Source of the DNA: Escherichia coli
Lineage (GTDB): Bacteria > Pseudomonadota > Gammaproteobacteria > Enterobacterales > Enterobacteriaceae
Direction: 5' to 3' (one strand)
DNA: 64,000 bases
NCBI RefSeq assembly: GCF_045037415.1
Contig: NZ_CP173438.1
Made by a program: the position numbers and the translations under genes. Under the pieces are notes generated by a model. That model did not search any database, had not been told where the DNA came from, and was given only the letters and a program-made list of their open reading frames with translations. Shown here one piece after another: positions 55,764 through 61,150 of this stretch; positions within the stretch are counted from its first letter, which is position 1; each line of letters starts with the position of its first letter.

Positions 55764-56600
55764 TTGGCGTCGCTGGTGGTGATGAAAAAAACACTAAGTG
55801 AGGCCACTGCGATGACAGTCCAAATATCTGCGGAATCCCTTTCTCCGCTACATCATAACCAACTTCCCGTCATCACTACTGAATTGCTTGCCAGTTTGTA
55901 TGGCACGGAAGTAAATGGTATCCAGCAAAACTTCAAGCGCAACATCGCCAGATTTGTCGTAGGAAAGCATTTTTTTAAGCTGGAAGGTAATGAATTACGC
56001 GACTTCAAAAACAGACTGACAGATAGTCAGTCAGTTGCTAAACATACCCGATCCCTCATTCTCTGGACAGAACGCGGCGCAGCTCGCCATGCCAAAATGC
56101 TGGAAACAGAACAGGCCTGGGAAGTTTTCGAAAAGCTGGAAGATTGTTATTTTAGCCAGCGTCCAGAGAGGCGGAGTACAACTACCGATGACCGTACTCC
56201 CTTGCGTGATGCCGTTAATATACTGGTCGGCAAGAAAGGCATGATGTATCCCGATGCCTACACCATGATTCATCAACGCTTCGCCGTCTCTCACATAGAA
56301 CAACTGTCACAGACGCAAATGTTAGAGGCGATTGAATACATCCACTGCCTGCTACTCGATGAAAATCACCCAACCATTCCAGATTTTTCTTTTATCACCA
56401 CTATCAAAAATGGAAAAGTGACCGGGATGCGCCATGTTGCCAAAGGCGAACATCTGATGACCTTTGACGCTTTCAAAGAGATCGCTGAGCGGGCAGGGTA
56501 TCTGGTGATCCACAGCGACAATCTGCGAAGTATGACACTGGATAAATTGATGGTAATGGGGAAAAAGTCGGCTATATCCGTTGCTAATTCAGCATTTTGA
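55764..56600 (+). CDS. ORF6N/KilA-N-domain protein (antirepressor-like)
   Basis: N-terminal ...LPVITTELLASLYGTEVNGIQQNFKRNIARFVVGKHFFKLEGNELRDF... pattern; start codon uncertain. Confidence 0.6.
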   Translation: MASLVVMKKTLSEATAMTVQISAESLSPLHHNQLPVITTELLASLYGTEVNGIQQNFKRNIARFVVGKHFFKLEGNELRDFKNRLTDSQSVAKHTRSLILWTERGAARHAKMLETEQAWEVFEKLEDCYFSQRPERRSTTTDDRTPLRDAVNILVGKKGMMYPDAYTMIHQRFAVSHIEQLSQTQMLEAIEYIHCLLLDENHPTIPDFSFITTIKNGKVTGMRHVAKGEHLMTFDAFKEIAERAGYLVIHSDNLRSMTLDKLMVMGKKSAISVANSAF

Positions 56601-56628
56601 CAGGTTGTTTGGGGCGGAAATACTCTAT

Positions 56629-56696
56629 TTGCGCTTAAAAAGGTATTTGACCACGACCAGCACGAGACCGAATACCTCTGTCAAAGTACCGCCCAT
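56629..56696. repeat. Direct repeat copy 1 (68 bp): 3'-end remnant of a membrane-protein gene
   Basis: 63 of 68 positions identical to 60051-60118; minus strand encodes a 23-codon remnant MGGTLTEVFGLVLVVVKYLFKRK preceded by a stop. Confidence 0.85.
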
Positions 56697-56774
56697 ATAA
56701 AACAGTTACATATGCACTTGATGACTAAGCTGGCACCAGGTTAACACCTGGCGCCAGCTTGAAGGAGACTTCAG

Positions 56775-57698
56775 TTATTGGTTTCTGAGGAAAGCGATTC
56801 TTGAAAGGGTCATTTGCGTCTGGCAGTCGACCATTTTCTTGACTTCAGCATCTGTTCCCTGCATTGAAACTTTACCGCACATAGCATCCTTAGTTTTGAT
56901 CCACTGACGCTGAGAAGGCAGCAAATCTTTTTTCTTCGCCGGGGTTAACTTGCTCCAGACGGTACTCAAATCAGAGTCGGCATTCGCAAATGCCATTCGG
57001 GACTGATCAAGGTTGTCAGCTTTTTGCGGCTGAAGTTGTGCCTGTCTCTCTATTTGCTTCTCCGCCTCATACTTAGCCTGTTCTTGCGCCCTGAGTTGCA
57101 CCTGTTGTTCCGCTTCAATTTGACTCTGTTGGGCATCCTTAGCCTGCTGGATTTTCTGCTGCTCAACGATCGGGGTGATAATGGAAAGCGATGTCAGTAA
57201 AGCGGCGCCCACTGATATCGGATTATCAGTAGAGGTTTTTACAAAAACGTTTTTCTGATCGTCGGTCGCCTGCACGGTGTAGGTGATACGTTTTGAAAAG
57301 GCGTTTGCGTTGTTCTCCAAAAACAGGCTTTCCATTTGCTTATCGAGATTACGATTAAAATTCTTTCTGTAAGCATCTGAAAGCTGGACGTACTCGTTCG
57401 CAGATAGAGTCATCGTCACGGTCCCTTCACAAGTTTTCATTGTGCTGCCCGTGTCACTTGATGTTGTGGAGATCTCAGAGATGGCTAGTTTGATCTTGTC
57501 CAGTGTGCTTCGTTTGGTCTGATTAGTGACATCAGGGTATTTATCGACCTGTTCAGAGAGTCCTTCATAAGCAGATTTTTTTAATAAATCCATGAGAGCT
57601 GACTGGGTTATTTCCGAAGAACAACCGATCTCATCTTTTTTGTTATCACAGCCTGTAAGGGCAATGGCGAGTAAGAGTACTGAGTATTTTAATCTCAT
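56775..57698 (-). CDS. Prophage lipoprotein with LprI/DUF1311-like C-terminal region
   Basis: Lipobox LTGC after signal peptide MRLKYSVLLLAIA; Gln-rich coiled-coil middle; C-terminal two-Cys region ...WIKTKDAMCGK...MVDCQTQMTLSRIAFL. Confidence 0.65.
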   Translation of the reverse strand: MRLKYSVLLLAIALTGCDNKKDEIGCSSEITQSALMDLLKKSAYEGLSEQVDKYPDVTNQTKRSTLDKIKLAISEISTTSSDTGSTMKTCEGTVTMTLSANEYVQLSDAYRKNFNRNLDKQMESLFLENNANAFSKRITYTVQATDDQKNVFVKTSTDNPISVGAALLTSLSIITPIVEQQKIQQAKDAQQSQIEAEQQVQLRAQEQAKYEAEKQIERQAQLQPQKADNLDQSRMAFANADSDLSTVWSKLTPAKKKDLLPSQRQWIKTKDAMCGKVSMQGTDAEVKKMVDCQTQMTLSRIAFLRNQ

Positions 57699-58885
57699 GA
57701 ATTCCCTTTAGAGTAAGGATTGGTTTTTAAGACGCGGTCTGTAATCAGTCCCGAGAGCTACAGTAAACAACGCTGAGCACTGAACGCATCACAGGTAAGG
57801 TAAAAGGTGATATCGGCAAAGGCTGTGAAACCTTTAATTCAACAGATGGGAACGGTATGCGCAGGATCCTGTAACGACGCTCCCAAAACCGGAAACCTGT
57901 AAGGCATGTTTTCGCTGCTGAACTTAATATACGAACCTGCACTATCATGAACATATTTTATATCGTTATACCCCGAGTGATTGTGCCCGGCAATGGATAG
58001 TGTCCTGGAGGAACTATTTCTACTGTAAAAGGTAGATATTTAATTTCAGTTTTGAATTATTCCCTGCTGTTAATAACAATGGCTGTATATGGCACCGAGT
58101 AGGCATTTTTTCGCTTACTGAAGGGCAGCTGTGAGCGAGGAACAGACTTTCCCTACTTCGTTGAGAGTACACCTAGTACAATCAAGGCTAAATGATAAAA
58201 ATATACAAAATATCATATTTATGATATATATAATGGCATTAATCTTATTCTTGGATTACGTTGAAAGGGTAATATTATATTTGTGTAACATAGTTTAGAT
58301 AACAATGCCGTTATGGGGGGGGAAAGACATTTCAACATATTAGCTTTGTATCTAACGCTCATGTAGATCTCGATTTTGAACTTAAAGAACAATTATTTTT
58401 TAGAGAGCAAGGTATTTTTGGGGAACAAAAACATAAAGTAATGGAGAGAGGAGAATGTATCAAAAAATCATCGATTTAATTTAGATTGTCCGTATAGTTG
58501 GGGGTAAGTCGAATCGCTGGGCTACATGGAATATTGTGTCAAGTAAAAATATATTTCAATCTTGCAATAACCGATTGTTGAAAATAATGTCAAATCTTAA
58601 TGGTGAATGGGGAGAATATAATAAACATGAGTCGATATTATGCAAATGGATTTAAATATTTTATACCCGAAGACATAGGGTTTCGAGAGTTCGATGAGAC
58701 TACTTTGAATGCTTTCGAATTTGCTGGCTAAAACATATAGGTTATATCTTACATCTGTTTGTAATGGAGCGTAGATGCGACAAGCTACACCATAATAATC
58801 ATATTATGATATATTGTTAAGTTGTTATGGCATTAAATAAAATTATGTCATTTTGTTAACCAAGCAAGAATCAAAGGACTTTTAG

Positions 58886-59584
58886 ATGGGTACGGCATTA
58901 ATTTCAAGCTTTATTAGTGGTGCAATAGCTATAATCTCTATTGCTATATCTACTTATAATCAGAATAGAATAAACAAGCTCAATGAATCACTGGATGTAA
59001 GGAGAAAACATCAGTACTATATTGAACCGTTAATTCGCTCAGCTTCAGACTTACAAAGCCGTATTTATAATATATTAGAATTGGGGTTCATTGAAGAGTT
59101 TTATCATAATGGGAATAAGCGCCAACAAGATTATGTTATCAACAATACTGTTTTTCTTTTTTCCCAGTTTTTTGCATGGACAGAAGCTGCCCGCATAGAC
59201 ATTCAATACCTTAGCCTAGAAAAAAATAAAAAAATGAGGGAGTTTATTAGATTACAGAACAATATTAACTCATTAATCCAAACAGACGTCTTTGGTCAGT
59301 ATTTTATGTTTTTCATAGGAGAGCAGAGAGCTATTGCAGAAAAGATGCTGATATCAACAGATACTGGATTTGATTGCATAGGTTACGGCAGTTTCACAAA
59401 GGAAAATTGCTTTATCAATGAGCCATTTTTTTTAGATTTAAACAATGAAGTGATAAATATGACAAGAGATATCGGAATTTATAAAGAAAGGCTAATCAGA
59501 ATACAGCACGCGTTAATCGATTTAATTAATTTTCTTGATCCTGGCATGATTCGATTTGACGGAAAAAAATATGGAAAAATATAA
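58886..59584 (+). CDS. Hypothetical single-pass membrane protein (232 aa), AT-rich foreign-looking gene
   Basis: N-terminal TM helix MGTALISSFISGAIAIISIAISTY then ~200-aa soluble region with no recognisable motif; AAAGGA RBS. Confidence 0.6.
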   Translation: MGTALISSFISGAIAIISIAISTYNQNRINKLNESLDVRRKHQYYIEPLIRSASDLQSRIYNILELGFIEEFYHNGNKRQQDYVINNTVFLFSQFFAWTEAARIDIQYLSLEKNKKMREFIRLQNNINSLIQTDVFGQYFMFFIGEQRAIAEKMLISTDTGFDCIGYGSFTKENCFINEPFFLDLNNEVINMTRDIGIYKERLIRIQHALIDLINFLDPGMIRFDGKKYGKI

Positions 59585-59769
59585 CCCAGATGATTCGTAT
59601 CAAGGTAAGTTGCTATATGTATCAATTTAATTATGGTTGGGTGAAATTTATGTTAATAGTAGCGGAGGGTTAGTTAAAATATGCTCTCAGTGATTTTTGG
59701 ATAGTTCTTTTATTTATCATTGAAAGTAAATATGTATAGCTTCAAGATTTACAAGTGAATCTGTTTATT

Positions 59770-59801
59770 GACAGTCCGCTTATGGCACAGAGCGGACTGT
59801 C
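59770..59801 (+). terminator. Hairpin, possible terminator of the 232-aa gene
   Basis: Inverted repeat GACAGTCCGC...GCGGACTGTC; weak downstream T-run. Confidence 0.4.
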
Positions 59802-60046
59802 ATATTAAATTTGGCTCCACGCCATAGATGTGTCAGCTCATATCTTATCTAATACACACAATAACTTTCTCATTCTTGGAGAATTATTTTTTTAAGGGTA
59901 GGTGTTGACGTTAGAGCAAAAGAATGGTGATTTTTTTGATGTGTATTACGTTGGAACTGATGGGAATAACTATCTGTTTTCAACGCACTGCTAATTTATC
60001 AAGGCCCTTTGATCAGGGCCTTCGAAAGACTGTTGGACCGAGAGAG

Positions 60047-60652
60047 TTACTTGCGTTTAAAAAGGTATTTTGTCACGACCAGCACGAGGCCGAATACCTC
60101 TGTCAAAGTACCGCCCATGTACAACTGTAGTGTTAAATCCTCAAATTCCAGCTTACCTGCGCCGTCGGCAATAAATACACCATTCATTATCAGAAGTTGG
60201 AAAGCAAGGATAATCAGGAACCATTTCCCGTATCGTTTTTTTAGAGCGATTTCTGCTTCAAAATCTTTGTTGTTGAGTTGTTTGCGCTCATGCTCGGTAT
60301 CAAGTGAATTCACCTGTTTCACAGATGTGAACTCGGTCAAGATTTTACTCTCAGTACGGGTGACTTGTTGAGAGGGTGTAGCAGTTGGAATTCTTTTGCT
60401 AGACGCAGCTACAGCCATTTTGCGAGCTTCGGCAGCTCTTTTTCTGGCTATTCCGCGAATACGGACAGCCGTTTTTTTGGGGGCGTGCGAAACCTTTGGC
60501 TGAGGTGAAGCTTCGTCAGGAGACTGAACCGGAGTTTCATCGTCCTCCGGCTCAACCTCTTCTGCTAACTGACGGTGTAGGTTGAGGGAATCCTTCAGTC
60601 TGCGTGCTACTTCCTGTTTGAAACGGCTGTTAAAATCGTCATCCGATGGCAT
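60047..60652 (-). CDS. Hypothetical membrane protein: charged, disordered N-terminal region plus C-terminal two-TM hairpin
   Basis: WFLIILAFQLLIMNGVFIA and GGTLTEVFGLVLVVTKYLF hydrophobic segments; start 10 nt after the upstream stop. Confidence 0.65.
   Translation of the reverse strand: MPSDDDFNSRFKQEVARRLKDSLNLHRQLAEEVEPEDDETPVQSPDEASPQPKVSHAPKKTAVRIRGIARKRAAEARKMAVAASSKRIPTATPSQQVTRTESKILTEFTSVKQVNSLDTEHERKQLNNKDFEAEIALKKRYGKWFLIILAFQLLIMNGVFIADGAGKLEFEDLTLQLYMGGTLTEVFGLVLVVTKYLFKRK
60051..60118. repeat. Direct repeat copy 2 (68 bp): authentic 3' end of the 201-aa membrane-protein gene
   Basis: Encodes C-terminus ...QLYMGGTLTEVFGLVLVVTKYLFKRK of ORF 60047-60652. Confidence 0.85.
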
Positions 60653-60661
60653 TTTAAAGCG

Positions 60662-61150
60662 TTACCCCAACCTCAAGTTCTTTAAACGATAAGTCATCGC
60701 ATCGTCAGATACGCCAAAATAATGCGCCATTATATAACTTGGTTGACCGTCAGCGTGCAGTTTTCTGACCTCATCTACCGGCATCAGAAGTTCTGCTGCG
60801 AACTTGTTTGCAAAAATTTCATCAGGATGCGTTCCGGCGCTTGCGGTTTCGCCACGTAAATCAACGTACTCATATTCATCGCTATGCGATGCTTGCCGGG
60901 CGATGTAATGCCCCAACTCATGCCCACATGAAAAACGTTGACGAACTTTGTTGTCATCACTGTTTAGAAAGATCGCTGGATCTTGATCTTTTTGTTTAAT
61001 CAGTGCGCCAGAAACTTTCCCAGGAAGATCGGTAATAAAAACATCTAATCCCATGTCGTGAGCAATTTTCGCTGGATCAACAGGGAAACCACGCCCGCAC
61101 CAGAACGTGTCCAGCACTCGCCGGGCGTGCTCTCTTGGGTTGGTAGCCAT
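60662..61150 (-). CDS. ImmA/IrrE-family Zn-metallopeptidase (COG2856-like)
   Basis: HEXXH motif in SCGHELGHYIA; 162 aa; GGAGG RBS. Confidence 0.75.
   Translation of the reverse strand: MATNPREHARRVLDTFWCGRGFPVDPAKIAHDMGLDVFITDLPGKVSGALIKQKDQDPAIFLNSDDNKVRQRFSCGHELGHYIARQASHSDEYEYVDLRGETASAGTHPDEIFANKFAAELLMPVDEVRKLHADGQPSYIMAHYFGVSDDAMTYRLKNLRLG

Follow-up and report, generated by a model that had tools for sequence, protein, structure and literature searches.

A prophage-borne Escherichia coli protein with one transmembrane helix as a stand-alone relative of the reverse transcriptase-associated protein RTasTM (Drt1b)

The gene at positions 58886-59584 of a 64,000-nucleotide stretch of Escherichia coli DNA (contig NZ_CP173438.1 of RefSeq assembly GCF_045037415.1; the whole stretch is called the window below) encodes WP_000536231, a 232-residue protein of the 'lysogenic protein' family. 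An earlier note, made by a model that saw only the letters, had taken it for an orphan protein with a single transmembrane (TM) helix, embedded in prophage cargo and with the look of single-gene abortive-infection or exclusion proteins. The present analysis points to remote homology between this protein and RTasTM (Drt1b), a TM protein that accompanies certain reverse transcriptases (RTs).

The gene and its cassette

The open reading frame (ORF) is ATG-started, lies on the plus strand and has the same coordinates in this analysis as in the earlier note. At the base composition of the cassette that carries it, in which 8.3% of random codons are stops, the chance of 232 stop-free codons is 1.7e-9. 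Comparison with the copies of the gene in P2-like elements gave a dN/dS of 0.25 for the coding sequence (CDS), indicating purifying selection, and identity within the block shared with those copies is 89-99% in the CDS and 70-84% in the flanks. The ORF is genuine and selected for.

The gene has its own ribosome-binding site and is followed, ~185 nt beyond the stop codon, by a hairpin (dG -23.8 kcal/mol, z -5.6) that is conserved in the P2 copies; these two features and the AT-rich setting, all three named in the earlier note, were borne out (Table 1). The WP_000536231 CDS is the only conserved ORF of the cassette. Three small upstream ORFs (58131-58298, 58219-58392 and 58600-58731) were considered as a possible antitoxin or partner and rejected, as they are not conserved in the P2 copy, and an Rfam scan of the cassette returned nothing meaningful.

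Table 1. Features of the cassette and of the WP_000536231 gene, in window positions.
Feature	Position	Strand	Evidence or remark
AT-rich single-gene mobile cassette, 1.73 kb, ~32% GC (flanks 45-50%)	58128..59856		86% nucleotide identity to the P2-EC58 Z-region and a P2-like prophage
Shine-Dalgarno-like AAAGGA	58873..58878	+	7 nt 5' of the ATG; a ribosome-binding site is annotated at the corresponding place in the P2-EC58 record
CDS, WP_000536231, 232 residues, 'lysogenic protein' family, PHROG 5606	58886..59584	+	dN/dS 0.25 against P2 copies
Codons for residues 3-23, single Ser/Gly/Ala-rich TM helix, predicted N-out/C-in	58892..58954	+	Hydropathy; AlphaFold2 helix 2-65
Codons for residues 42-232, predicted cytoplasmic helical-bundle domain with small beta-hairpin	59009..59584	+	Alignment, AlphaFold2
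Residues 42-187, aligning to the RT-associated one-TM protein	59009-59446	+	hhalign
Terminator-like hairpin, 13-bp stem, weak U-tract	59769..59802	+	Kept in P2 copies, sole difference in the loop

The window has its match in a lambdoid prophage found in ST131 strains of E. coli, JJ1887 among them. WP_000536231 is recorded there as a 'hypothetical protein' and its gene is placed between the ORF6N/LprI genes and the ImmA/IrrE gene, upstream of DUF1367/DUF1364/Q. The cassette occupies the slot between the replication genes and these late-regulation genes, and the gene is indeed embedded in prophage cargo, as the earlier note had it. Among 5426 complete E. coli genomes, 424 carry the gene (~8%) and 402 keep the whole 4.7-kb arrangement. 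In E. coli MSB1_4E (NZ_LR890693) the match to 58500-59900 is in two pieces, with an IS1 transposase annotated beside the 'lysogenic protein' gene.

A large family with one transmembrane helix

WP_000536231 matched PHROG 5606 along its full length (E 7e-163 over residues 1-232 of 232). It is 91% identical over the full length (BLASTP) to ORF1 of the P2-EC58 Z-region, and 92.9% identical to that locus over residues 23-232 by tblastn (AJ512683; CAD54907). A word-indexed search returned at least 290 homologue clusters at 90% identity, and an exhaustive search gave 825 representatives at 50% identity, 441 of them with E <1e-10 and mostly 230-270 residues long. The family is present in Proteobacteria, filamentous Cyanobacteria and Actinobacteria, including two copies within one Streptomyces genome, and has fold-level relatives in fungi. 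The word 'orphan' in the earlier note was therefore wrong, while its statement that no motif could be recognised stands in so far as neither Pfam nor NCBIfam matched the protein.

Searches with other scopes were also negative. A PDB sequence profile search gave nothing under E 0.3, no viral fold in BFVD matched at E <= 0.001, and a plasmid search gave only three weak actinomycete hits. Among the PHROGs no annotated family of phage structural, lysis or superinfection exclusion (Sie) proteins matched, only PHROGs of unknown function. Homology to a housekeeping or structural phage protein, which by the earlier note would have refuted its reading, did not appear in the BFVD and PHROG comparisons.

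Foldseek against AFDB50 returned 176 matches below E 1e-3, all uncharacterised and with fungal proteins among them. The fungal matches come from Aspergillus niger, Hortaea werneckii, Jaapia, Dissophora and Mycena (the last a 'putative lysogenic protein'), have equal length and fold at 23-29% identity and Foldseek E ~1e-10, and include one protein fused to a ubiquitin-like protease domain. With its fungal relatives and its many members among filamentous cyanobacteria and actinomycetes, the family is distributed in the manner of conflict or cell-death modules. Some bacterial members (P0123, P0138; Desulforapulum autotrophicum) carry a C-terminal fusion to a trypsin-like serine protease of ~320 residues, with a GDSGS motif and weak NAL1_N and Peptidase_S64 Pfam hits.

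The layout of the family comprises one TM helix, a charged helical stalk that varies in length and a predicted cytoplasmic helical bundle of ~170 residues. With a mean Kyte-Doolittle hydropathy over 19 residues of >1.6 as the criterion for a TM helix, residues 3-23 are the only hydrophobic segment of WP_000536231 above the threshold, in agreement with the single N-terminal helix described in the earlier note. This helix is flanked by 2-4 neutral or acidic residues on its N-terminal side and by a basic stretch on its C-terminal side, both in WP_000536231 and in almost every one of the 33 homologues aligned with it. The topology predicted from these flanks has the N-terminus outside and the C-terminus in the cytoplasm. 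N-terminally extended homologues (P0138, P0160) have a signal-peptide-like segment ahead of the TM helix, which fits the same topology. The AlphaFold2 model of WP_000536231 (pLDDT 86, pTM 0.79) has a long N-terminal helix at residues 2-65, formed by the TM segment and the charged stalk, followed by a helical bundle with a small beta-hairpin at residues 155-164.

Across the 33 aligned members (35-85% identity to the query) 23 positions are invariant, and they fall in five motifs (DLQSRIYNI, NNTVFxxxQFFAWTExxR, GEQRAIxE, CIGYGxF and LQHALIDLxxFLDP). A HEPN-like R-x5-H motif (R202..H208) was considered and rejected, as H208 is replaced by N or R in many homologues.

Remote homology to RTasTM

The top hidden Markov model (HMM) match of the query in PADLOC was RTasTM (DRT), at 22 bits and E 1.8e-5, a partial match over residues 71-204. 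RTasTM was likewise the top match for all ten of ten diverse family members (E 2e-4 to 1e-10), one of which covers profile positions 14-202 of 229, and no other PADLOC model matched the query or these ten members. The RTasTM protein (PADLOC PDLC03013/PDLC03799) is also known as Drt1b of DRT type 1, as TM clusters 85/1858 of Mestre et al. 2022 and as protein 2 of plasmid pFR76. The reference used here was this last protein, which comes from E. coli E101 and is listed as 'Protein 2, 1 TM' in Table S2A of Rousset et al. 2022 (PMC9122126). Both RTasTM models match it from one end to the other (E 5e-164 and 1e-122; 405-541 bits) and therefore represent the one-TM protein of the validated system formed by an RT-nitrilase and a one-TM protein.

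Profile comparison by hhalign recovered the same relationship, with a probability of 95.6% and E 1.1e-8 for the family profile against the single pFR76 protein, and 96.2% and E 2.4e-9 over 130 columns against a profile of 13 homologues of the one-TM protein. Ten residues are invariant in both families (R59, Y83, T88, Q94, W98, R103, E146, Q147, G151 and Y167), giving a common core of R, Y..T, Q..W..R, EQ..IG and C..Y..F. The AlphaFold2 model of the RT-associated protein (pLDDT 85) consists of a TM/stalk helix, three helices, a beta-hairpin and three further helices, and the order of elements is the same in the model of WP_000536231. Both proteins have a Ser-rich N-terminal TM helix, a charged stalk and a helical bundle with a beta-hairpin, both are of similar length (229 and 232 residues), and both are encoded in phage or satellite cargo hotspots. 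The remote-homology and structure-prediction searches proposed in the earlier note have thus been carried out, and they yielded the RTasTM homology and a confident AlphaFold2 model.

The two groups nevertheless differ in several respects. Identity is only ~21%, and the query reaches 22 bits over part of its length where true members reach 405-541, short of a strong full-length match. The genes of true RTasTM members, in P4-like satellites, overlap an RVT_1 gene of ~957 codons at its 3' end, whereas the query gene has no adjacent RT and is not downstream of, or co-transcribed with, a UG1/UG5 RT-nitrilase gene. The DLQS of the DLQSR motif is limited to the 'lysogenic protein' family, and the arginine alone is common to both. 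The RT-associated clade comprises only 29 clusters, all from Enterobacterales, against at least 290 at 90% identity for the 'lysogenic protein' family. The architecture, by contrast with these features, is that of RTasTM, with ~230 residues and one N-terminal TM helix followed by a predicted helical cytoplasmic domain. From these comparisons WP_000536231 is best described as a remote homologue of RTasTM and not a member, belonging to a stand-alone sister family. Databases have listed the protein, with no assigned function, ever since the record of the P2-EC58 Z-region (AJ512683). The link to RTasTM is new, and literature searches found no paper connecting the 'lysogenic protein' family to Drt1b/RTasTM.

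Cargo slots in P2-like and lambdoid prophages

ORF1 of the P2-EC58 Z-region, a 'putative lysogenic protein', belongs to the same family and is carried on the same cassette (86% identity over 1.73 kb, hairpin included), but it is located in the P2 Z slot and not in a lambdoid prophage, and it was never given a function. A further copy, 87% identical, is found in a P2-like prophage (L003), where it is the sole gene separating FI (tail sheath) from G (tail-fibre assembly) and lies on the opposite strand, and a family member again adjoins the tail-fibre assembly gene in a P2-like remnant of Providencia. In phage P2 this position is occupied by fun(Z), annotated as 'cloned gene blocks growth of T5'. 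The resemblance to Fun(Z) lies in the slot between G and FI, the strand opposite FI and the non-essential nature of the cargo, and it is a feature of the P2-like copy, the window copy being located in a lambdoid prophage. Fun(Z), with 528 residues, is only a positional analogue: sequence similarity was not found, and tblastn against 50,697 phage records, P2 (AF063097) included, hit P2-EC58 only. The occurrence of the same cassette in the P2 Z slot and in the ST131 lambdoid prophage indicates that a single-gene cassette has moved between two unrelated types of temperate phage.

The lambdoid slot is a variable cargo hotspot. In a sister lambdoid prophage of E. coli CD09, the interval from LprI to the TM-protein/ImmA-IrrE genes holds a GIY-YIG nuclease and two small ORFs, and in E. 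coli YZMc3-1 a SMEK-domain protein and a 450-residue protein take the place of both LprI and the cassette. The LprI gene and the cassette are bracketed by an 81-nt direct repeat (56626-56706 and 60048-60128, 89% identical), which suggests acquisition by recombination. The right copy coincides with the 3' end of the gene for a membrane protein of 201 residues, and the repeat is probably a recombination scar of cargo exchange.

Several other genes of this prophage region were characterised. An ImmA/IrrE metallopeptidase of 162 residues with a HEXXH motif matches PADLOC CapP (E 2.8e-25) and is followed, 9 nt downstream, by the gene of the 201-residue protein, which has a C-terminal TM helix and no family match. 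This pair (60047-61150, minus strand) is kept in sister prophages that lack the cassette and may be a separate regulatory or defence module. Upstream of the slot, an ORF6N-domain protein that is Rha/antirepressor-like (55764-56600, plus strand) matches the PADLOC candidate PDC-S05 (E 1e-9). A type I-E CRISPR spacer of E. coli 50579417 and several other strains is a perfect match to the 5' end of the LprI-family gene (57667-57699, minus strand), and a second array, in strain JX21CE8, has a 35-nt match to the ImmA/IrrE gene (~60910-60944), so that E. coli arrays hold spacers against this prophage.

Genomic neighbours of the family

Neighbours within 5 kb were clustered for 68 loci from distinct species, a sample of contexts that is neither unbiased nor exhaustive, and neither a recurrent partner nor an RT emerged. 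No RT was found within ~12 kb in the JJ1887 prophage record or in the P2 slots, nor among five large neighbouring ORFs tested for one; large neighbours include a type IV restriction enzyme (1206 bits), a Mokosh-like helicase and a HEAT/ARM protein. An RT partner acting in trans in P2-like phages was considered and rejected, because the RT types are inconsistent (Abi-P2 in one phage and retron Ec48 in the other). The gene is usually alone and has no conserved partner, which suggests that the protein works by itself.

Known or likely defence genes are present beside some members. SIR2-HerA is located immediately upstream of a family member in a Lysobacteraceae genome, and other contexts include nSTAND-CHASE2 with SIR2_2, toxin-antitoxin genes and an ORC/CDC6-like ATPase. 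In a Colwellia metagenome-assembled genome the family member leads what looks like a compact operon, in which it is followed, with 8-13 nt between genes, by DUF6884, SIR2_2 and a nucleoside 2-deoxyribosyltransferase-like gene; this may be an undescribed multi-gene system.

A possible anti-phage role

The favoured interpretation, held tentatively and at a little short of an even chance, is that WP_000536231 is an autonomous, prophage-carried anti-phage protein anchored in the inner membrane, a stand-alone relative of RTasTM/Drt1b. A single-gene anti-phage function is suggested by the homology to the TM component of the validated RT-nitrilase system, by the cassette filling the slot that in P2 belongs to the T5-blocking fun(Z), by the alternative cargo of the sister lambdoid slots, including the GIY-YIG nuclease, and by neighbours in some genomes such as SIR2-HerA, the type IV restriction enzyme, the Mokosh-like helicase and toxin-antitoxin genes. 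The protein would be expressed in the lysogen, where its predicted cytoplasmic domain would sense or bind an infection cue; activation could then lead the TM helices to associate, compromising the membrane and aborting the infection, or alternatively an early membrane stage of infection could be blocked. A sensor acting through a membrane-active helix would suit the architecture, in which a TM helix rich in small residues is joined by a stalk to a bundle whose polar and aromatic core is invariant. The mode of action proposed here, that of an infection-aborting membrane protein, resembles that of other TM effectors (the retron Ec48 effector, SLATT, CBASS/Pycsar TM proteins and Hailong HalA), from which WP_000536231 differs in having a single TM helix; the SLATT, retron Ec48 and CBASS TM effector models of PADLOC gave no match to the query at E <= 1.

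The RT-associated protein itself accompanies a minority of UG1 and UG5-large RT-nitrilases (PMC9226505) and has been termed a 'transmembrane effector' (PMC9122126). The validated pairing of an RT-nitrilase with a one-TM protein was active at room temperature only. Its deletion is reported to compromise DRT1 defence, according to the mention of Gao 2020 in 10.64898/2025.12.16.694600, and a Hailong-like channel has been suggested for Drt1b with HalA as the analogy (PMC13275509).

Several points weigh against an autonomous anti-phage function. A single TM helix needs oligomerisation to form a pore. Defence neighbours are present in some lineages and not in cyanobacteria: in cyanobacteria and actinobacteria ten closely linked neighbours on the same strand gave a single, weak PADLOC hit between them, and two of the three linked neighbours scanned with Pfam were housekeeping genes (YchF GTPase and glycogen debranching enzyme), the third matching nothing. 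The partners or fusions, where present, are enzymes (nitrilase, SIR2 and trypsin-like protease), and this would suit a sensor or adaptor no less than an effector. A promoter of its own is plausible for the gene, but the scan for promoter-like hexamers upstream did no better than chance (10 seen against 10.3 expected in shuffled sequence, with no excess). Literature searches by accession and family name found nothing functional on the family. For Drt1b, the label 'effector' is an assumption in the literature, drt1b being missing from most drt1 operons and its own mechanism not established (PMC13275509). The abortive-infection or exclusion look described in the earlier note is thus upheld by the RTasTM homology, the fun(Z) slot, the variable cargo and the defence neighbours, and is not upheld by the housekeeping neighbours in cyanobacteria.

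Among the alternatives, a chance or decaying ORF without function has only the absence of annotation to recommend it and is refuted by conservation: next to the improbable length and the dN/dS of 0.25 stand 23 invariant columns over 33 homologues, an AlphaFold2 pLDDT of 86 and an intact gene in ~424 E. coli genomes, which leaves this explanation practically no credence. It is unlikely that the protein is an accessory membrane protein with no part in defence, acting for example in the envelope, in stress physiology or in lysogenic conversion, and hitch-hiking in cargo slots; such a function would explain why the gene is common beside housekeeping genes in filamentous cyanobacteria and Streptomyces, why there are fold-level relatives in fungi and why the prophage neighbour is an LprI-family lipoprotein with an envelope function, but it accords poorly with the homology to a component of a validated defence system, with a position that is not syntenic even inside phyla, with the two copies in one Streptomyces genome and with the recurrence in known exclusion or defence slots.

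It is improbable that the protein is a membrane-tethered sensor or adaptor, inert alone and requiring an enzyme partner encoded elsewhere (RT, SIR2 or protease). The enzymatic nature of the known partners and fusions agrees with such a role, whereas the lack of a recurrent neighbour among the 68 loci, the unrelated types of the co-resident RTs, which have their own effector, the lack of an RT within ~12 kb of the gene in the ST131 prophage and the movement of the cassette as a single gene all argue for independence. Superinfection exclusion, in which DNA entry or an early membrane step would be blocked with no killing of the cell, has a similarly low probability. It would suit a predicted inner-membrane protein that is carried by prophages and occupies the slot of the T5-blocking Fun(Z), and the conserved sequence of the TM helix would be compatible with binding to a host membrane protein. 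Only 2-4 residues are predicted to be periplasmic, however, and the family is abundant outside phages with fold relatives in fungi, while its homologue operates alongside a cytoplasmic RT-nitrilase.

If the solo protein does defend alone, as in the favoured interpretation, it would be a very compact one-gene system present in ~8% of complete E. coli genomes, with the prophage of the pandemic clone ST131 and P2-like phages among its carriers. The part that Drt1b plays in DRT1/UG5 systems would also become easier to approach, as the conserved pocket and TM helix could be studied without the 1000-residue RT. The RT-associated clade, with its 29 clusters, would then appear to be a derived offshoot of a much larger stand-alone family extending to filamentous bacteria and fungi. 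A broader and more doubtful proposal is that the family is an ancient, self-sufficient membrane sensor-executioner, a module which RT-nitrilase (DRT1/UG5), SIR2 and protease systems recruited secondarily; if this were true, the solo gene of P2 and ST131 prophages would be an unrecognised single-gene immune system and would explain how Drt1b acts.
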